Origin: Actinomycetota bacterium
GTDB taxonomy: Bacteria; Desulfobacterota; Deferrimicrobia; Deferrimicrobiales; Deferrimicrobiaceae
NCBI GenBank assembly: GCA_050258195.1
Contig: JBLMYI010000052.1
Span: 1 to 45,150 of the forward strand
Direction of reading: 5' to 3'
Length of the DNA: 45,150 bases
Both the position numbers and the translations under genes were made by a program. The notes beneath the pieces are model-generated. The model was not told the DNA's origin, did no database searches, and saw nothing but the letters and a program-made list of their open reading frames with translations. Shown in pieces: positions 22,293 through 30,129 of the stretch (position 1 is the first letter of the stretch; every line of letters starts with the position of its first letter).

Positions 22293-24383
22293 TCACCCCG
22301 GGTAGACCGTCACACGGTCGCGGCCCCGCTGCTTGGAGAGGTAGAGCGCCTCGTCGGCCCGCTTCAGGAGCTCCTCGACCGCGTTGCCGTGTTGAGGAGC
22401 GCACGCGACGCCGAAGGAAGCGGTGACGGCGACTTCCTTCCCCGCGTGGGTGAAGCGGACCTGGCGGATCATCCGGCGAAACCTCTCGGCCCCCTCCCTG
22501 GCCCTCTCGGTATCCGCCAAGTGGAGATAGAGCACGAACTCCTCCCCCCCGTACCTCCCCGCCGTGTCGCCCTTGCGGACGCCCTTGCCGAGGACCGACG
22601 CCACGCCCCGGAGCACCTCGTCGCCGAATGGGTGTCCGTACTTGTCGTTGACCCCCTTGAAGTGGTCGATATCCAGCATCACGAGGCCGCAAGGGTGCCG
22701 GCCGTCGAGCCGTGCGAGATCCTGCTCCAGCCGCTCGAGGAACGCCTTCCGGTTCGACAGCCCGGTCAACCCGTCCGTTGTCGCCTTTTTCGTTAGGGAT
22801 TCGAGCCGTTCGACGTGGGAAAGCCCGAGCTGCATGACCTTCGTTATGTCGCGCGCGATCTCCGCGTGATGTTTCTGGAATCGTTTCTCCTGTGGGTGGG
22901 CGCAGACCAGCGCGCCCCGAAACCCAACCCTGCCTTCGACCGGGAGGACCATGAACGACCGCTCCCCCGCCCTTTCCCACGATTCCGGAAGCACGCCCTG
23001 GCTCCGCGGGGGGCCGGGGGTACCCGGAAAGATCCGCTGCGTCCCGGTTCGGATCACCCACCCGGCGTAGCTGTCCCCGAGCGGTTCGAATCCCTCCGGC
23101 CCCGGCCCGCAACCGTCCGGCGAAACCGTCCAGGCGACGCGGCCGATCCCGGGATTCCCCCCGGATTCGATGAGAAGGACCCTGTCCGCGTCGACCTGAC
23201 GGCGGACCTGTTCCGTGGTCTCCGCGTAAACCATATTTCGCCTGGAACGGATGCCGTCGACCGGTTCCGGATCCCCTTCCGTCCCCACCTCCGCCATCTT
23301 CCGGACCATCTTCTGGTACCACTCCCCGCGTAGAAAGTATCGATCCCCCTGGTGCAGTTCCCGCATCCGGCCGATATCGCGCCCCACGAAATGGCCCGCG
23401 AGCTCCATCGCCGGAATTACGGGTTCCCGCCACGGGCCCTCCTCGTCGCGGATCGCGAGGAGAACGCCTTCGACCACCCCCTCCCTGAAGACCGGGACGG
23501 CGGCGACCCCTGCGGGGGCGCTCCCCCGCCCGCTTTTCCAGGGTGCGTACCGCCTTGCACCCGGGCCGACCTCCAGGAACGGTTTCCTGAAAACGGTCGC
23601 CTCCCGAACGGGGACATACGTGTCGGGAAGGGAGATCTCCCGGAAGACCGTCGAGCCGCGGCTCAACAGGATCCCCTCGTGGAGAACCGATCCAGGCGAT
23701 ACGGACCGGGAGATGTAGGCCACGTCGGAAGCGCCGGTCAGCCCCAGCAGGCGATCCAGCGCCTCCCGGGTTCCTTCTTTCAGCTCCTCTCCCCTCCGGA
23801 GCAGGCTCGATTCCTCGGTCATTTCCCCGCCTGCGGGAAGACCGCCGTTTCCCGAATCCTCCCACGGGAGAACCAGCGTCCTGCTACGGGCGATCGTCTC
23901 CCGCACGTCGTTCCCCCCCTGTCGTTCCTTCCGATGCCATCGGCGCACGGCGGCGCCCGCTCCTCCCGCGGTCAGCGCCATCGCGGAAGTGTAGAGGATC
24001 CCTTGTCCGATCGGCCCCGGCACCGCGGCCAGCCACGCGTCCGCGCACAGGATGGCCGGAATGGAGACCGTCGCTGGAAACTTCAGGGCGAGGCCGAAGA
24101 AGAGGGCCGCCGGGACGACGCCGGTCCGGGATACCGGCGGGACGAAGGCGTGGATCTCCATGGCCGCGGCGCCTCCCCACGCGAGAAGGGGGAGGAGGTC
24201 GGGGACGCGGTCGTCCCGTTTTCGCGCGAGAAGGTACGCGACGAGAAAGTACGCGGCGGCAAGCGGTCCGATCGAGGCGGCGAGGAGGAAAGGAATTCCT
24301 CCCGGGATTCTCTCCTGAAGGAGGTAAAGGAGAAGAAGGTACGCCGGGGCGGAAATCGCGGCGGCGTGGCGGGAGAGCTTCAA
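22293..24383 (-). CDS. Membrane-bound diguanylate cyclase (TM region, GAF-like region, GGDEF)
   Basis: Several N-terminal hydrophobic helices. C-terminal TDGLTGLSNR, DIDHFKGVNDKYGH, and an RKGD I-site before RYGGEEF. TTG start is uncertain. Confidence 0.88.
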   Translation of the reverse strand: MKLSRHAAAISAPAYLLLLYLLQERIPGGIPFLLAASIGPLAAAYFLVAYLLARKRDDRVPDLLPLLAWGGAAAMEIHAFVPPVSRTGVVPAALFFGLALKFPATVSIPAILCADAWLAAVPGPIGQGILYTSAMALTAGGAGAAVRRWHRKERQGGNDVRETIARSRTLVLPWEDSGNGGLPAGGEMTEESSLLRRGEELKEGTREALDRLLGLTGASDVAYISRSVSPGSVLHEGILLSRGSTVFREISLPDTYVPVREATVFRKPFLEVGPGARRYAPWKSGRGSAPAGVAAVPVFREGVVEGVLLAIRDEEGPWREPVIPAMELAGHFVGRDIGRMRELHQGDRYFLRGEWYQKMVRKMAEVGTEGDPEPVDGIRSRRNMVYAETTEQVRRQVDADRVLLIESGGNPGIGRVAWTVSPDGCGPGPEGFEPLGDSYAGWVIRTGTQRIFPGTPGPPRSQGVLPESWERAGERSFMVLPVEGRVGFRGALVCAHPQEKRFQKHHAEIARDITKVMQLGLSHVERLESLTKKATTDGLTGLSNRKAFLERLEQDLARLDGRHPCGLVMLDIDHFKGVNDKYGHPFGDEVLRGVASVLGKGVRKGDTAGRYGGEEFVLYLHLADTERAREGAERFRRMIRQVRFTHAGKEVAVTASFGVACAPQHGNAVEELLKRADEALYLSKQRGRDRVTVYPG

Positions 24384-24492
24384 CGAAGAGCAACCGGAGT
24401 GCCGGTTTGTGGGTTGTGGGCAGGGGGATCAGGGGAAGAGTATCCCCCACTTCGGATCCATCGGTGGCTGGTGTCGCGGGATAACGGAAACA

Positions 24493-24873
24493 CTAGGGGC
24501 GATTTTGGCCGGGCTTGGGGGAAGATTGCGGGCGGGGGTCCTGCCGCGAGGGTACGACGATGACGTTCTCCCCCTGCTTGATGAGGCCGAGCCTGCGGGC
24601 CTCCTGCTCGATGACCGACGGGTTGCCGCGAAGATCCTCGACAGTGCGCTTCAGCAGCGCGTTCTCCTGTCGAAGCTTGTCGACCTCACCCCTGAGCTGG
24701 CGCTCCGTGCTGCGGAGCCGCCAGATGTCCACGACCCCCATGTCGCGGAACAGGGAGATGAAGACCGCCGCGATCACCAGGGCCGCCGCGATGAACAGGG
24801 GAAGGCGGCGCTTTTTCCGGTTCGGGTCCCTCAAAGGGACCGTCATGTCGGTCAGGCTCTTGTTTCGTCGCAT
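24493..24873 (-). CDS. ftsB: Septum formation initiator FtsB/DivIC family
   Basis: Basic N-terminus, TM helix, coiled coil, IEQEARRLGLIKQGE. Start is at 24873 or 24846. Confidence 0.85.
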   Translation of the reverse strand: MRRNKSLTDMTVPLRDPNRKKRRLPLFIAAALVIAAVFISLFRDMGVVDIWRLRSTERQLRGEVDKLRQENALLKRTVEDLRGNPSVIEQEARRLGLIKQGENVIVVPSRQDPRPQSSPKPGQNRP

Positions 24874-24885
24874 GGTCGGGTGAAT

Positions 24886-24891
24886 ATCATA
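24886..24891 (-). promoter_or_regulatory. Candidate -10 element upstream of ftsB
   Basis: TATGAT in an AT-rich intergenic gap. No convincing -35 element. Confidence 0.3.
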
Positions 24892-24919
24892 TCCGAAAAT
24901 GCCGGCTTCGTTCGATCAT

Positions 24920-26173
24920 CTAAAAATTCACCGCCACGGTCCCGCCCGAGGATCCGCCGGAACCGCCGCCCCCTCCTCCGCCGCCGATGGCGGCGGCCAC
25001 ACCCGCGATCAGGAGAACGCCCCAGAACCAGGGGCTCTTGTACCATGCCCTCTCCTGCCGTTCCGCTCTCGGCCACCCGTCCGCCGCGAGGGTGTCGGCG
25101 ACCCATTTCCCCGAGATCCTGGAGCCCTTCCCCCCGCCGGGAAACGACGTTTCCCCCAGGAGCGCCGGATCCTGGCCCGCCGGTCTGCCGGCGTAGAGCC
25201 GGGCGCGCAGCCTTTCGCCGGCCGGCTCCTTTTCCAGCATCAGGATCGCCACCCGCGAGGTTCCCGCCGCCGCCGAGAGTTCCCCGACCAGAGGGCCTGC
25301 GCCTCCGCCCTTTCCACGCGCGGCGCCAGCAAGAAGCTCCCCGAGACGGGCGACCCGGTCGCCGGGGAGGGAGAAACGCAATCTCTCCGTGTCTCCCGGA
25401 AGCCATTGTCCCGTCGTTTCCGCGTCCCGGTACCCCGGGTGGGAGACGCGGATCCGGACCGGCGCGATGTTCTTCATTCGAACCCTGGCCGGCGTGACTC
25501 CCCGCCGCTCCCCGTCGACGAAGATCGCCGCGCCGGAAGGGAGCGATTCGATCAGGAGTTCCGCCTCGGGGAGGGGGCGGCGCCCGCCCGCTTCCCAAGC
25601 GGCAAGCATCTGCGGGGGGAACAGGGCGGGGTCCGGGGAGAAGCCCGGACGCAACGCCCGTACGCGGGAGAAGAGCGTCTCGGCGTCGGACATCTTCCCT
25701 TCCCAGAGGCGGAGGATCCCGCGCCGCAGAAAGATCTCCGCGAGGAACGGTCGCGTCGCCTCCGTGAACCGGTACGACCGCGACTCCCTCTCCGCTTCAT
25801 CGAGAAGACGCTCCGCGGCCGCGCTCTCCACCCTGTCCATCAATTCGGAGGCGCGCGACACCTTCGAGGCGATCCGTCGCAAGGCCGCGTCGTCGGGAAC
25901 CGGGAGGACCCCGGCCGCCGGATCCTTCGCCGAAGGCTCCAACGGGACGGGGAGCCATCGGATCCGGAGCTCCTTCGCGACGATCGCCGGGATCGGGTCG
26001 AGAACAGCGCGGGCCGAAGGGTCGGGCAGATCCGGCGCGGCGTATTTCAGGAGCAGCGCGGGTTCCGTCGACACCGCGTCCTCCGCGAAGGCGACCGTGG
26101 GCGCCGACCGCCACAGCAGCGTCCCGCAAAGGAGAAGCGCGACGGCCCTACGTCGGCTTGACGTAGATTTCAT
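24920..26173 (-). CDS. Secreted PEGA-domain protein with a helical (TPR-like) region and a C-terminal Trp-rich TM / Gly-rich tail
   Basis: Signal peptide ending AFA, PEGA-like LLIESLPSGAAIFVDGERRGVTP...SHPGY, C-terminus WYKSPWFWGVLLIAGVAAAI-G8-SGGSSGG-TVAVNF. Confidence 0.75.
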   Translation of the reverse strand: MKSTSSRRRAVALLLCGTLLWRSAPTVAFAEDAVSTEPALLLKYAAPDLPDPSARAVLDPIPAIVAKELRIRWLPVPLEPSAKDPAAGVLPVPDDAALRRIASKVSRASELMDRVESAAAERLLDEAERESRSYRFTEATRPFLAEIFLRRGILRLWEGKMSDAETLFSRVRALRPGFSPDPALFPPQMLAAWEAGGRRPLPEAELLIESLPSGAAIFVDGERRGVTPARVRMKNIAPVRIRVSHPGYRDAETTGQWLPGDTERLRFSLPGDRVARLGELLAGAARGKGGGAGPLVGELSAAAGTSRVAILMLEKEPAGERLRARLYAGRPAGQDPALLGETSFPGGGKGSRISGKWVADTLAADGWPRAERQERAWYKSPWFWGVLLIAGVAAAIGGGGGGGGSGGSSGGTVAVNF

Positions 26174-26795
26174 CCGTGATGTCCCGGTCGACGGCGACCG
26201 TCGTCTGCCCGATCTCGAGCACGAAGGAGGGATTCCGCTGCAGAAGGCGAACCCGGCTTCCCGGGACGATCCCGAGGGCGGAGAGCTTCTCCAGCCGCTT
26301 CCTCGACCGCGGGGTGATGAAGACGATCCGCACCGTGGCCCCGAGGGACGCCTCGGTCATGCGCATGACGAGGGGGCGGATCTCCGTCCGGATCCGGTCG
26401 CAGCACTCCCCTCTCGGGATCGGGCGGCCGTGCGGGCAGGAGGGGGGGTGACCGAGAAAGGTGCAGACGCTCTCGACCACGGGCTCGGAGAGGATGTGCT
26501 CGAACTGGCAGGCGCTGTTTTCCATCTGCGTGTCATCCAGATCGAACAGATTCTGCAATAGCACTTCCGCGAGGCGGTGACGCCGGATGATCCCCCGGGC
26601 ACGGTTCTCGCCGCTCTTCGTGAGGAGGACCTCTTCCCCTGAGGCGTCGACCATGCCGCCCTCGACCAGCTCCTCGAGCAGGCGCTCCGGGCCCTGCTCC
26701 GCTGTGGAGCGAAGAACCTCCGCGCGATTCGCTTTCCGATCCTCCCGAAGCGTCCACAGAAGCTCGAGGATCTCGTCCTGGCCCTGTTCGGTCAT
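26148..26795 (-). CDS. DtxR/MntR-family metal-dependent regulator fused to a C-terminal FeoA (SH3-like) domain
   Basis: RRHRLAE, ACQFEH, LGHPPSCPHGRPIP, then FeoA-like LSALGIVPGSRV...IYV. ATGA overlap with the upstream mini-gene. Confidence 0.88.
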   Translation of the reverse strand: MTEQGQDEILELLWTLREDRKANRAEVLRSTAEQGPERLLEELVEGGMVDASGEEVLLTKSGENRARGIIRRHRLAEVLLQNLFDLDDTQMENSACQFEHILSEPVVESVCTFLGHPPSCPHGRPIPRGECCDRIRTEIRPLVMRMTEASLGATVRIVFITPRSRKRLEKLSALGIVPGSRVRLLQRNPSFVLEIGQTTVAVDRDITDEIYVKPT

Positions 26796-26980
26796 TTCCG
26801 GATTCCTTTCGTGAACAAACCCTTCACGAAGTTCACCACCTTCGACTCGGGCATGGGGAAAGAGTAACCGCATCGCGGACAACAGACAAGCGTGCATCCT
26901 TTTCCCATGGGGCACCCGGAGCGGCAGGCGTGATCCGTGGCGTCGATCTCAAACTGGCACAGCGGGCATCGGATCTTCAC
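26792..26980 (-). CDS. Small Cys-rich protein (62 aa, 8 Cys), putative metal/Fe-S binding, feoB-associated
   Basis: VKIRCPLCQFEIDATDHACRSGCPMGKGCTLVCCPRCGYSFPMPESKVVNFVKGLFTKGIRK fills the feoB-dtxR gap, and its TGA overlaps the dtxR ATG. Start is GTG 26980 or TTG 27001 (TTGA overlap with feoB). Confidence 0.8.
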   Translation of the reverse strand: MKIRCPLCQFEIDATDHACRSGCPMGKGCTLVCCPRCGYSFPMPESKVVNFVKGLFTKGIRK

Positions 26981-26997
26981 GCCGTTCACCACCCGTG

Positions 26998-28968
26998 TCA
27001 AAACGTGATCCCCGCCCAGCGCGCGAAGAAGTTCACGCCAGCTCCGACCAGCACGGCGAACGGGAAGATGAACAGGGACATCCCGATCGCCACCTTCGCT
27101 CCGTGCTCCTTGACGATCACGAGCAGGTTCGCGAGACACGGCATGAAAAGCGTCATCGTGACCAGGCTCACCACCACCTGGAGGTGTGTGAGCGTCCCGC
27201 CCTTTGCCATGCTGTACAGCCCCGCCGCCCCGTAGTCCCGGCGCAGGAAGCCGATCAGGAACGCCTCCGTCGCCTTCGGGGGCAGGTTCAGCAGATGGAC
27301 GACCACCGGTTCCGCCGCGGCCTGGATCTTCAGCAGCCAACCCAGCCGGTCGAAGGTGAAGAGAACGAGTGTTCCGACGAGGAAAAGGGGAACCGCCTCC
27401 CGCAGGTACCATTCGATCCGGGCCATCGTCTTTACGGCGAGGTTCCCCACCTGGGGCCAGCGGATGGGGGGAATCTCGAGGATGAAGTCCGACGACTCCC
27501 CCGGGATCACCTTCGAAGCGAGGAAGCCGACGGCGAGGATGACCCCCGCCATCAGGCCGGCCCACGTGATCGTGGCGACCGGACCGACGTCCGACAGCAT
27601 CCCGAGGATCACCCCCAGCTGCGCCGAGCACGGGATCCCCAGCGCCAGCAGCAGCGTGATGATCACCCTCTCCCTGCGCGTCTCGAGGATCCGGGTGGTC
27701 AAGGTCGCCATCGTGTCGCACCCCAGACCGAGGATCATCGGAAGCACCGCCTTCCCGTTGCAGCCGATCTTCTTGAAGAGACGGTCCACCATCACCGCAA
27801 GCCGGGGCAGGTACCCGGAGTCCTCCAGGATCCCGAACCCAAGGAAGAAGGTGCCCACGATCGGCAGGACGATCGCGACGGCGTACGAGAGGGCCATGGA
27901 GATCATCCCGTACGGCCCCACCAGGAAGTCCCGCAGGAACGGCCAGGGGACGAACCGGTCCAGCATCGCCGCGACGAAGGGGATGACCCAGCCTTCGAAG
28001 AGCGACTTCTGCAGGAAGTCGACGAGGGTGCCCGCGCCGAACACCCCGACGAAGCCGTAGGCGAGGGCCAGGACCCCGAACAGGATGGGGATTCCGTAAA
28101 CGGGGTCCATGGCGTACCGGCCGAACGCCTGCGCGACCTTTTTCGAGGAAGGGGCAGACGCCTCGACCCCGAGCTCGTTGAGCAGCCGATCGATCCAGGA
28201 CAGCCGCGCACGGTTCACGCGGGAGACGATCTCCTCCCCCGACTCCTCGATGAGCCGGTTCCGCACGTCGTTCATCTCCCGGATCCGTGCGGCGGAGACG
28301 TTCTCCGACAGCCACGGGGAGAGGGAGTCGTCCCCGCACAGCAGCATGATGGACAGCGCCCTCTTCCCGATCGTCGTCTGCGGCGGGAGCAGAGCTTCCA
28401 TCCGGTGGACGGCCGTTTCGATCCCGTTTCCGTAGTCCACCCGGACCGAGGACGGGGAGGGCCGCTCGAGGAGAGGAAGGAGGCGATCCGTCCCCTTCTT
28501 CCGTACCGCCACCGTGGCGAGCACCGGGACCCCGAGGCGCTCTTCGAGGGTCTCCAGCCGGGGCATCACCCCCCGCTCCCGGGCTTCGTCCGCCATGTTG
28601 ACGGCGAGAACGAGCGGAACCTCCATCTCGGCGAGCTGCGCGGTGATCATCAGGGAGCGGCGCATGTTCTTGGCGTCGCACACCTGCAGGACCCGCGCGC
28701 CGGGTTCCCGCATCAGGATATCCCGCGTGACCCGCTCGTCTTCGGACATGGGAAGCAGGGAGTACACCCCGGGGGTGTCGATCACCTCGAGGGCCGTTCC
28801 CCGGTCCCGCGCCTCGCCCCGGGTGATCTCCACCGTCGTTCCGGGGTAGTTCGACACGTTCACGTACCGGCCGGTGAGGGCCCCGAACACGACGCTCTTC
28901 CCTACGTTGGGGTTTCCCACCAGGATCACGGCGCCCAGCGGTTTCATGGAGACCTGCGCGAGGTTCAT
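26998..28968 (-). CDS. feoB: Ferrous iron transporter FeoB
   Basis: G1 GNPNVGKS, NYPGTTVE, DTPG, NMAD, LEDSGYLPR, gate cysteines LGCD / IPCSAQ / MPCLA. ATGA overlap with the fur stop. Confidence 0.96.
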   Translation of the reverse strand: MNLAQVSMKPLGAVILVGNPNVGKSVVFGALTGRYVNVSNYPGTTVEITRGEARDRGTALEVIDTPGVYSLLPMSEDERVTRDILMREPGARVLQVCDAKNMRRSLMITAQLAEMEVPLVLAVNMADEARERGVMPRLETLEERLGVPVLATVAVRKKGTDRLLPLLERPSPSSVRVDYGNGIETAVHRMEALLPPQTTIGKRALSIMLLCGDDSLSPWLSENVSAARIREMNDVRNRLIEESGEEIVSRVNRARLSWIDRLLNELGVEASAPSSKKVAQAFGRYAMDPVYGIPILFGVLALAYGFVGVFGAGTLVDFLQKSLFEGWVIPFVAAMLDRFVPWPFLRDFLVGPYGMISMALSYAVAIVLPIVGTFFLGFGILEDSGYLPRLAVMVDRLFKKIGCNGKAVLPMILGLGCDTMATLTTRILETRRERVIITLLLALGIPCSAQLGVILGMLSDVGPVATITWAGLMAGVILAVGFLASKVIPGESSDFILEIPPIRWPQVGNLAVKTMARIEWYLREAVPLFLVGTLVLFTFDRLGWLLKIQAAAEPVVVHLLNLPPKATEAFLIGFLRRDYGAAGLYSMAKGGTLTHLQVVVSLVTMTLFMPCLANLLVIVKEHGAKVAIGMSLFIFPFAVLVGAGVNFFARWAGITF

Positions 28969-29414
28969 CGAGAGGGCTTCGGGGATCCGCCGGACGCGCA
29001 TTTCCTGCAGAATCCGTAGATTTCGAGGCGGTGGGCCGTCGGACGGAACCCGTGCCGGCGGGTCACGAGATCCTGGAGATTCTCGATCTCCCTGTCCTCG
29101 AACTCGATGACCGTTCCGCATTGCCGGCAGACGAGATGGTCGTGGTGCGGAGAGAGGTTGCTCTCGTAGCGTCGCGCCCCCTCCCCGAAATCGAGCTCCT
29201 TCGCGTATCCGAGCCGTTCGAGGAGCTTCAGCGTCCGATACACGGTTACCGCGCCGATCCCGGGGGCGGACTCACGGACGGAGCGCGTCAGGTCCTCGAT
29301 CGTCACGTGCTCCCTTGCCCGGAAGAAACCTTCGATGACGACCGCGCGGCTCCGGCTCCTCTTGCCTCCGGCGGCCTGTATCTCCCGGTCGATCCGTTCT
29401 AGGAGCCGTTTCAA
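28965..29414 (-). CDS. fur: Ferric uptake regulator (Fur family)
   Basis: Motifs HVTIEDL, TVYRTLKLL, RYE, HHDHLVCRQCG, HRLEIYGFCRKC. Probable TTG start at 29414 after GGAGGG. The track's start at 29486 coincides with the -35 box. Confidence 0.9.
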   Translation of the reverse strand: MKRLLERIDREIQAAGGKRSRSRAVVIEGFFRAREHVTIEDLTRSVRESAPGIGAVTVYRTLKLLERLGYAKELDFGEGARRYESNLSPHHDHLVCRQCGTVIEFEDREIENLQDLVTRRHGFRPTAHRLEIYGFCRKCASGGSPKPSR

Positions 29415-29442
29415 CGGGCGGAGCGCCCTCCATTCCTGATCA

Positions 29443-29457
29443 TGAAATTCAATTTCA
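29443..29457. promoter_or_regulatory. Fur-box-like operator (perfect 7-1-7 inverted repeat)
   Basis: TGAAATT-C-AATTTCA overlaps the -10 element and expected +1 of the fur-feoB promoter. It resembles the 7-1-7 Fur core TGATAAT-N-ATTATCA. Confidence 0.82.
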
Positions 29458-29486
29458 ATATATCCCGGGGCCCCCGCCCCCGTCAA
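29457..29486 (-). promoter_or_regulatory. Sigma70-type promoter of the fur-feoB unit
   Basis: TTGACG-N18-TATATT immediately downstream of the rplQ terminator. Confidence 0.72.
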
Positions 29487-29516
29487 GCGGAACCTCCCGG
29501 CAGCGACGTGCGATCG

Positions 29517-29545
29517 AAAGAAAAACGGCCCCGAGGGGCCGTTTT
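29517..29545 (-). terminator. Intrinsic terminator of the ribosomal cluster
   Basis: mRNA AAAACGGCCC-cucg-GGGCCGUUUUUCUUU, about 30 nt after the rplQ stop. Confidence 0.9.
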
Positions 29546-29574
29546 CTCCTATCCGATCCGTTCGGGAAGCGTTC

Positions 29575-30129
29575 CTACCCCTGTCCGCCCTCCGGAGTCT
29601 TCTGCGTCTGCGCCCGTGAGGCGCGTGGTTTCGTAGCCTTCGGCGCGGCCTGTTTCACTTTCCGGGCGGCCGGCCTCTTCGTTTCCTTCTCTTCCTTCTT
29701 CTTTCCCGCGGTTTTCGCGGGAGCTTTCTTCGCCGCCGCCTTTTTCTTTCCCTTCGCGCCGACCTTCTTCTCCTCCGCCGGCAGGTACTCGATGATCGCC
29801 ATCTCGGCCCCGTCTCCGATCCGGAACCCCGTCCGGACGATCCGGGTGTACCCGCCCTGGCGCCCGGCGAACCGGCCCGCCAGCGTGGCGAACAGCTTGT
29901 CGGTGGCCCCCTTGTCGGTCAGGAGGGAAAAAACCCGCCGGCGCGAATGGAGCGTTCCGGCCTTCCCGAGGGTGATCAGACGGTCCGCAAGCGGCCGCAG
30001 CTCCTTCGCTTTCGAAATGGTGGTCTCGATCCGCTCGGCGTGAACGAGCGCGTTCATCATGTTCCGCAGCAGCGCCTTGCGGTGCGCGGGTTTCCTTCCC
30101 AGCTTCCTGTGGTCGATTCCGTGGCGCAT
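29575..30129 (-). CDS. rplQ: 50S ribosomal protein bL17 with a Lys/Ala-rich C-terminal tail
   Basis: MRHGIDHRKLGR, IETTISKAKE, GGYTRI, GDGAEMAIIE. Confidence 0.97.
   Translation of the reverse strand: MRHGIDHRKLGRKPAHRKALLRNMMNALVHAERIETTISKAKELRPLADRLITLGKAGTLHSRRRVFSLLTDKGATDKLFATLAGRFAGRQGGYTRIVRTGFRIGDGAEMAIIEYLPAEEKKVGAKGKKKAAAKKAPAKTAGKKKEEKETKRPAARKVKQAAPKATKPRASRAQTQKTPEGGQG

Follow-up and report, generated by a model that had tools for sequence, protein, structure and literature searches.

A predicted Fur-repressed feoB operon of the Deferrimicrobiaceae with an eight-cysteine mini-protein and a FeoA-bearing DtxR-like protein

The regulation of FeoB and the actual roles of FeoA and FeoC are long-standing questions in bacterial iron uptake, and several described systems come close to the operon considered here. 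It lies on a 45,150-nucleotide stretch of DNA from a genome assigned to the Deferrimicrobiaceae (GenBank assembly GCA_050258195.1, contig JBLMYI010000052.1, positions 1 to 45,150; this whole stretch is called the window below), where five tightly packed minus-strand genes follow rpoA-rplQ: fur, feoB, a gene (Cys8) for a small protein with eight cysteines (the 8-Cys protein), a gene for a DtxR-like protein and a gene for a PEGA protein. Rodionov et al. (2004; PMC545781, Table 3) listed, for Geobacter sulfurreducens, G. metallireducens and Desulfuromonas, dFUR boxes that precede "fur", "feoB1 - R" and "fur2-feoB1 - R", so that fur-feoB1-R with a dFUR box has been on record since that year; a preliminary description of the window had called the module non-canonical and did not know the two-layer uptake system that it proposed to be characterised. 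The Geobacter and Desulfuromonas loci share with the window the order of fur, feoB without feoA and a regulator-like gene, as well as a palindromic Fur box of 17 bp a short way ahead of fur, and the genomes share a porin-feoA-feoA-feoB2 locus, listed for G. sulfurreducens as "X-feoA-feoA-feoB2 (porin)" (PMC545781). The published listing gives "feoB1 - R" only; as far as it goes, it mentions no small Cys-rich gene and leaves R undiscussed. Unlike the operons listed there, the one in the window stands directly after rplQ and includes the PEGA gene.

A second relative is the PgMntR-FeoB2 operon of Porphyromonas gingivalis, in which a DtxR-family protein is encoded together with a FeoB paralogue that lacks a separate FeoA (PMC4805248). 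With this precedent, the pairing of a DtxR-family gene with a FeoA-less FeoB is not new. Shared with the window are the C-terminal FeoA domain or domains on the DtxR-family protein and the presence of a second, canonical FeoB in the genome; PgMntR differs from the window protein in having two FeoA domains and a predicted DNA-binding domain, the substrate of that system is Mn(II), and the available text of the paper makes no mention of a Cys8 gene or fur (PMC4805248). DtxR and IdeR normally have a FeoA/SH3-like domain as their third, C-terminal one (PMC4805248), and for that reason a DtxR::FeoA protein is not in itself unusual; what had been described as a fusion is the ordinary three-domain architecture of the family.

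FeoC and the PF12669 proteins resemble the 8-Cys protein in being small, Cys-rich and encoded right after feoB, and they have been proposed to bind metal or Fe-S clusters and to modulate FeoB (PMC8749426). The 8-Cys protein differs from both in its distinct, nested Cys motif and its zinc-ribbon-like prediction, and in other phyla it is fused to FeoA, a link that the accessible part of the same source does not report for FeoC or PF12669. FeoA is likewise a domain of a larger protein, rather than a free subunit, in the FeoA-FeoB fusions of Bacteroides (PMC8980893), but there it is joined to FeoB itself, whereas it is joined to a DtxR-type sensor in the window and to the 8-Cys protein in other phyla. 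The gene order with its Fur box (PMC545781), the DtxR-family/FeoB operon (PMC4805248) and small Cys-rich proteins after feoB (PMC8749426) are, to this extent of the sources, already known. The searchable literature, supplements (such as the operon tables of PMC8749426) and subscription papers aside, yielded neither the 8-Cys family with its FeoA fusion nor a degenerate DNA-binding domain and FeoA-slot role for the DtxR-like subfamily linked to FeoB.

On balance, the comparisons presented below favour a Fur-repressed, autoregulated operon that would encode a second, FeoB1-type Fe(II) transporter and, dedicated to it, two cytosolic accessory proteins that bind metal.

The eight-cysteine protein and its link to FeoA

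The eight cysteines, together with P35, Y39 and F41, are invariant in 13 sequences, and are arranged in the nested pattern C-x2-C, x10, C-x3-C, x5, C-x3-C-C-x2-C. No Pfam or NCBIfam family matches the protein at an expect value (E) of 0.01 or below. A profile search of 1.84 billion representative sequences recovered 729 clusters at E<=0.001 and 105 at E<=1e-10, mostly of 55-95 amino acids with a minority of 136-194; the nearest clusters in the ESM Atlas are unnamed hypothetical proteins. The AlphaFold2 model, at a mean predicted local distance difference test score (pLDDT) of 64.8, consists of two beta-hairpins bearing the outer CxxC knuckles and a C-terminal helix. Foldseek comparison of this model with the PDB gave nothing at E<=0.001, and the weak rows are zinc fingers and zinc ribbons, e.g., the ZitP zinc finger at E 0.45. 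Because the two-hairpin model and these weak matches agree, the protein is placed in a zinc-ribbon-like class with a second, inner four-Cys site that may hold Zn or an Fe-S cluster, an assignment that extends to the generic fold class only. Two named families were considered for it and rejected. FeoC (PF09012) is ruled out by the lack of a Pfam or NCBIfam match and by the predicted beta-hairpins and single helix in place of a winged helix, and PF12669 by the lack of a Pfam match and of a transmembrane helix.

The Cys8 gene was recovered from 22 of 24 other genomes of the genus, from all seven genomes of a second family belonging to the class and, in a first draw, from two of nine further families in the phylum. 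When the draw was widened, 47 of 201 genomes of the phylum, and 33 of 141 genera, proved to encode the mini-protein. The order feoB, Cys8, DtxR-like gene holds in 18 of 20 fetched stretches, with rpoA-rplQ-fur ahead wherever the contig reaches that far. Stretch L049 gave no match to the module, and L048, a 3-kb contig, has feoB and the DtxR-like gene with no match to the mini-gene. Five further contexts from the phylum, two of them single-contig genomes, all have feoB-Cys8-DtxR-like, with fur upstream in four. Five genomes (G078, G098, G120, G055 and G131) have two copies of the Cys8 gene each, which suggests that some members of the phylum hold two copies of the module.

A short open reading frame with a GTG start could also be a chance opening in a G+C-rich spacer, and automatic annotation often leaves such frames unnamed. 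Conservation refutes this explanation for Cys8, and its probability is negligible: the protein sequence is conserved down to 40% identity with every Cys retained, the family fills the 729 representative clusters, the gene recurs across the sampled genomes of the phylum, and in-frame fusions to FeoA occur.

The fusions came to light in a cross-phylum survey that used a Cys8-only motif and one genome per species and yielded 125 relatives, from which 80 loci were kept. These span the Deferrimicrobiaceae, other "delta" lineages, Verrucomicrobiota, Chloroflexota, Actinomycetota, Eisenbacteria, KSB1, Latescibacterota, Cytophagia, Dadabacteria and one Bathyarchaeia metagenome-assembled genome (MAG). 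FeoB is encoded directly upstream of Cys8 in 78 of the 80, the exceptions being L115, where the contig starts, and L099. The gene downstream takes several forms: a full DtxR-like::FeoA gene in 44 loci, a FeoA domain fused to Cys8 in the same frame in 24, and a separate small FeoA in five; nothing was found in seven, five of which end within 200 nucleotides of the mini-gene. Where enough downstream sequence is available, a FeoA domain thus follows Cys8 in 73 of 75 loci, and in 29 of the 80 this slot is filled by a plain or Cys8-fused FeoA without any DtxR part. The fused proteins retain all eight cysteines, and each of nine that were scanned has a Pfam FeoA domain at the C-terminus and no named domain at the N-terminus. 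Upstream of feoB, fur is encoded in 36 loci; 34 of these are of the DtxR-like type, and no locus of the fused type is among them.

The expected co-occurrence of the mini-gene and DtxR::FeoA with this clade of FeoB is therefore found in the 44 loci with the full gene, and FeoB adjoins Cys8 nearly throughout. The companion proposal, that the Cys-rich and the FeoA-bearing proteins are partners of FeoB, has strong comparative support from the synteny across phyla and the 24 Cys8::FeoA fusions. Given this synteny and gene fusion, the 8-Cys protein is probably a Feo accessory subunit that acts with FeoA, and the unannotated family of 729 clusters merits annotation as a candidate Feo subunit. A complex prediction for the DtxR-like and 8-Cys proteins scored 0.00, but was run without controls and counts neither way.

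Three loci of the survey depart from the usual layout in other respects. In the Bathyarchaeia MAG (L126, 3462-3959) a DtxR-like gene lies upstream of feoB, additional to the downstream one. A Chloroflexi MAG (L129, 3378-3947) also has a DtxR-like gene upstream of feoB, in place of a downstream one, with no FeoA-domain match downstream of Cys8. The only Cys8::FeoA fusion that lacks a FeoB within 6 kb in either direction is in an Anaerolineaceae MAG (L099, 5941-6450).

Promoter and probable Fur control

The hexamers TTGACG (-35, 29486-29481) and TATATT (-10, 29462-29457), at a spacing of N18, match at 10 of 12 positions and form the only promoter-like match in 24400-29800, where shuffled sequence gives a mean of 0.4. 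The preliminary description had a perfect 7-1-7 palindrome overlapping this promoter, and both are there and conserved in relatives: TGAAATT-G-AATTTCA occupies 29457-29443, its first base being the last base of the -10 hexamer, such that the Fur box reaches over the end of this hexamer and the likely start of transcription. Sequences ahead of fur were compared in 17 relatives whose Fur proteins range from 96% to about 40% identity with that of the window. Sixteen of them retain both hexamers and the palindrome amid completely diverged flanks, and the seventeenth (L040) has a box-like repeat on a contig that ends before a -35. By hand count, the 17-mer at 29458-29442 agrees at 15 of 17 positions with the published dFUR box WTGAAAATNATTTTCAW, which was derived for delta-proteobacteria (PMC545781), and the last base of the site is 27 nucleotides upstream of the fur start. 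In the genome as a whole (2.3 Mb, 66.5% GC) no site other than the palindrome comes within two mismatches of the 15-mer consensus of the relatives, and 12 sites lie within three; two AT-rich sites in the latter group, at C71:12069 and C100:9249, are weak candidates for further Fur targets.

The fur product matches PF01475 at 116.3 bits against a cut-off of 23.1. Its best NCBIfam matches are Fur equivalogs, at 102 bits against a cut-off of 200, with the PerR and Zur models scoring lower. The genome has a second gene of the Fur family at C152:5739-6011 (PF01475, 82.5 bits). Since the box is conserved and matches the dFUR box, control of the operon by Fur, including autoregulation of fur, is very likely, and the phylogenetic footprint and the 15/17 fit sustain the earlier suggestion that Fur governs its transcription.

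FeoB, the DtxR-like protein and their possible coupling

The FeoB of the window matches TIGR00437 at 395.2 bits (cut-off 315.65) and FeoB_N at 173.6 bits, with Gate, FeoB_C and FeoB_Cyto all above their cut-offs. It is 30% identical to the other FeoB of the same genome and 42-57% identical to the Cys8-linked FeoBs across phyla; by these identities, the Cys8-linked FeoBs are nearer kin to one another than to the FeoB paralogue of the genome. The paralogue belongs to a locus on contig C145 (5399-9792, minus strand; loci L150 and L133) with an Alginate_exp-type porin, two feoA genes, a 738-amino-acid feoB product and a small PF12669-like reading frame whose match of 18.6 bits is below the cut-off of 27. 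The absence of a stand-alone feoA, as first described, accordingly holds for the locus in the window and fails for the genome, where the search for another feoA found these two; no winged-helix feoC came to light, there being no match to the FeoC family among the proteins scanned. The canonical FeoAs of the genome have no match in any surveyed locus at E<=0.001, and the FeoA domain of the DtxR-like protein matches the fused and separate FeoAs at 30-50% identity. The first FeoA of C145 carries a His/Cys-rich insertion ahead of the SH3 core. Two genes upstream of the porin-feoA-feoA-feoB set, at C145:10295-10714 on the minus strand, is a gene for an ArsR/SmtB-like helix-turn-helix protein, a possible alternative regulator, whose helix-turn-helix match is weak and whose family was judged by eye from the translation.

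The DtxR-like gene is the only PF02742 gene of the genome, its product matching PF02742 at 85.1 bits and PF04023 at 50.5 bits over residues 144-214. A 19-member profile aligned with structures of IdeR, DtxR, SloR and ScaR in the PDB (best E 3e-27) from residue 4 onward, and on this ground the protein is, in sequence terms, a true DtxR/IdeR homologue with the normal three-domain layout. In common with DtxR and IdeR (PDB 7b1v, 1fx7, 1bi0) it has the three domains, the length, the His/Glu and Cys/Glu/His metal residues and the SH3-like/FeoA C-terminus; it differs from them in lacking PF01325, in its replaced DNA contacts, in the deletion of three residues before helix 3, and in the additional invariant residues C111, H116, C120, H122, C131 and C132. 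PF01325 was found neither by hmmscan nor in a six-frame search at E<=1, nor on any of ten N-terminal domains scanned at E<=10; the 120 homologues listed all have PF02742 and PF04023, and none has PF01325. Mean pairwise identity within the family is 0.19 for helix 2-turn-helix 3, 0.61 for the metal domain and 0.47 for the FeoA domain. The residues of DtxR that contact DNA are R27, A28, R29, T40, S42, R47, R50 and R60 (PMC7762939). Aligned with them in the window protein are A25, E26, V27, G35, E37, E42 and E45, with R60 falling in a gap, so that none of the eight is kept, and the alignment is confident over the second half of helix 3. Judged from these alignments, the winged helix of the FeoB-linked DtxR-like subfamily is degenerate. 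A FeoC-like identity for the N-terminal domain was also tried and rejected: PF09012 is absent from all ten domains scanned, which have a sub-threshold likeness to assorted winged helices such as HemN_C.

The metal-binding part of the protein has been kept. Across 19 sequences H73, E77, C96, E99 and H100 do not vary, and they line up with the RKHRLAE and AC.WEH motifs of IdeR. The extra Cys/His set, also invariant in the family, lies beyond the classical DtxR ligands, at residues 111-132 (about 26400-26465 in the window), and, taken with the CC pair of the 8-Cys protein, may mark an additional metal or Fe-S site.

These features can be assembled into a working scheme. When iron is sufficient, Fur-Fe(II) would bind the 17-bp box across the -10 and the transcription start, and would thereby silence the whole set from fur to the DtxR-like gene, and probably the PEGA gene as well. 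With no stand-alone FeoA encoded next to FeoB, the C-terminal FeoA/SH3 domain of the DtxR-like protein would take the FeoA role, an assignment that draws on its positional equivalence with plain FeoA in other phyla and that is preferred here with modest confidence. The 62-residue 8-Cys protein would be a two-site, zinc-ribbon-like binder of Zn and/or Fe-S that works with the FeoA domain, as the fusions in other phyla suggest. The least certain step concerns the DtxR-like protein itself, which is more likely to couple cytosolic metal occupancy to FeoB activity than to act as a classical repressor, because its metal residues and extra Cys/His set are kept and its DNA contacts are lost. That it gave up DNA binding and became a metal-dependent gate on FeoB is a tentative step further, somewhat short of an even chance. 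The fullest form of the scheme is more tentative again: the DtxR-like protein might be a metal-sensing FeoA that presents its FeoA domain to the N-domain of FeoB, or withdraws it, in response to Fe(II) or Mn(II) in the cytosol, and the 8-Cys protein might serve as a co-sensor with Zn or Fe-S, docking by its C-terminal helix at the point where other phyla link it covalently to FeoA. The substrate, given the Fur box, would most simply be Fe(II).

Much of the same evidence has to be set against a plainer explanation, in which the DtxR-like protein is a genuine DNA-binding metalloregulator of the IdeR/MntR type whose FeoA/SH3 domain tunes its own metal response, FeoB works alone or with the distant FeoAs, and the 8-Cys protein is an accessory analogous to FeoC. 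Annotation pipelines call the DtxR-like family a "metal-dependent transcriptional regulator", and Rodionov et al. labelled the gene "R" (PMC545781). PgMntR, which shares an operon with feoB2, is a DNA-binding protein whose FeoA domain is required for its structure (PMC4805248). This main alternative, the less likely of the two accounts, has to meet a PF01325 domain that is undetectable on the protein and on the 120 listed homologues, a recognition-helix region that is the least conserved part of the family and keeps no DNA-contact position of DtxR in the window protein, the 29 loci with a DtxR-free FeoA at the same gene position, and a fur promoter region in which no second conserved palindrome is evident by eye among the relatives.

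Several observations weigh against the scheme in which the DtxR-like protein serves FeoB. The protein is homologous to DNA-binding repressors such as IdeR, DtxR, SloR and ScaR over its whole length, N-terminal domain included; its alignment with DtxR is of low posterior confidence around the turn of the helix-turn-helix; and three of the 19 members have neutral or basic N-terminal domains, so that some members may still bind DNA. Acidity of that domain was rejected as an argument against DNA binding, since by hand count the N-terminal domain of canonical IdeR is net negative as well. The Geobacter homologue has reportedly been treated as the regulator IdeR. The two stand-alone FeoAs encoded on C145 could in principle serve the FeoB of the window, and no dFUR-like box is seen by eye upstream of their porin-feoA-feoA-feoB locus. 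A quick FeoA tree that places the canonical FeoAs on long outlying branches is poorly resolved and rests on 73 columns. The 80 surveyed loci are not independent, about 20 coming from one family, although the pattern still spans many phyla. The closest functional precedent, PgMntR, binds promoter DNA in vitro (PMC4805248).

Either mechanism could be combined with a different substrate, the transporter importing Mn(II) instead of Fe(II) and the DtxR-like protein sensing manganese. For a DtxR-family gene that shares its operon with a FeoB without a separate FeoA, PgMntR-feoB2 is the one characterised example, and there FeoB2 is a manganese transporter (PMC4805248). The best NCBIfam match of the DtxR-like protein is the MntR equivalog, albeit at 72 bits, far below the cut-off of 350, and for iron a separate, canonical Feo locus is present in the genome. 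The position aligned with Met10 of DtxR is acidic, as in MntR-type sites. The operon nevertheless stands under a Fur-type box of the sort common to iron-transporter genes in related lineages, and the metal site retains the Cys that is typical of the iron-sensing DtxR/IdeR type; import of manganese is judged the more improbable for it, and has a low probability, below that of the DNA-binding alternative.

The lineage to which the FeoB of the window belongs extends over many anaerobic and soil or sediment phyla, and within it the FeoA domain occurs in three natural packagings, i.e., free, fused to the 8-Cys protein and fused to a DtxR-type sensor, which would link FeoA directly to metal or redox sensing. 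Many of the genes beside feoB that are annotated as "DtxR family Mn-dependent transcriptional regulator" may not encode DNA-binding regulators. If the reading of the DtxR-like protein as a sensor-borne FeoA is true, it would amount to post-translational feedback on Fe(II) import beneath the transcriptional layer of Fur, and would define a new and widespread Feo accessory subunit.

Gene layout and downstream neighbours

The junctions in the sequence bear out the five co-oriented, tightly coupled genes that had been reported behind the rplQ terminator (Table 1). A hairpin with a U-run comes after the rplQ stop and folds at -34.4 kcal/mol (z -2.79); the hairpin is kept in genus relatives, and a simple pattern-based terminator scan did not flag it. 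The ATGA junctions described earlier are both present: the fur stop TGA (28967-28965) overlaps the feoB ATG (28968-28966), and the mini-gene stop overlaps the ATG of the DtxR-like gene (26795-26792). The 26-nucleotide overlap between the DtxR-like and PEGA genes was also correctly read, with the PEGA ATG at 26173 and the end of the DtxR-like gene at 26148. Between feoB, whose stop is 27000-26998, and the mini-gene either a TTGA overlap or a 17-nucleotide gap had been allowed. Both can be read, from TTG 27001 and GTG 26980 respectively, with GTG 26992 as another candidate start; homologues in relatives begin one to four residues ahead of the first Cys, and for this reason GTG 26980, with the gap and the 62-residue product, is the likely start. 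The start of fur had to be moved: the mechanical reading-frame start at 29486 is the -35 hexamer itself, and the conserved start is TTG 29414, where relatives have GTG or ATG.

Table 1. Coordinates of the operon and its control elements in the window
Feature	Position	Strand	Remarks
fur	28965..29414	-	149 amino acids from TTG 29414; Pfam FUR 116 bits; start conserved in relatives
feoB	26998..28968	-	656 amino acids; FeoB1-type paralogue; TIGR00437 395 bits
8-Cys mini-protein gene	26792..26980	-	62 amino acids from GTG 26980; zinc-ribbon-like (predicted); no named family
DtxR-like metal-sensor gene	26148..26795	-	215 amino acids; divergent winged helix, Fe_dep_repr_C, C-terminal FeoA domain
PEGA gene	24920..26173	-	417 amino acids; PF08308 30.8 bits
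rplQ intrinsic terminator	29519..29549	-	G+C hairpin and U-run; upstream operon boundary
Sigma-70-type promoter	29457..29486	-	TTGACG-N18-TATATT
Fur-box operator (predicted)	29442..29458	.	17-bp site holding the 7-1-7 palindrome 29457-29443

Metatranscriptome contigs that are 90-99% alike to the window, from three libraries of two studies, cover parts of fur, feoB, Cys8 and the DtxR-like gene and bridge the junction of the last two. These contigs come from relatives, carry no strand or end information and may include DNA carry-over, and are taken as a weak hint that the module is expressed.

The PEGA protein matches PF08308 over residues 205-254 (cut-off 20.8 bits) and carries a signal peptide, a hydrophobic helix at the C-terminus and a long tail rich in Gly and Ser. 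Its inclusion in a conserved module did not survive comparison: matches are confined to Deferrimicrobiaceae-type loci, at 39-85% identity, and to two class-level relatives, where they are faint (25-27%), with none in loci from other phyla in the 80-locus survey. The gene is probably co-transcribed with the operon, and since its conservation is confined to the genus and family, it is regarded as a lineage-specific passenger.

Beyond it, on the minus strand at 22293-24873 of the window, the operon is followed by ftsB (DivIC family) and a gene for a 696-residue membrane GGDEF protein, an arrangement that is syntenic in genus relatives. A GGDEF gene is listed in the Desulfovibrio Fur regulon (PMC545781).

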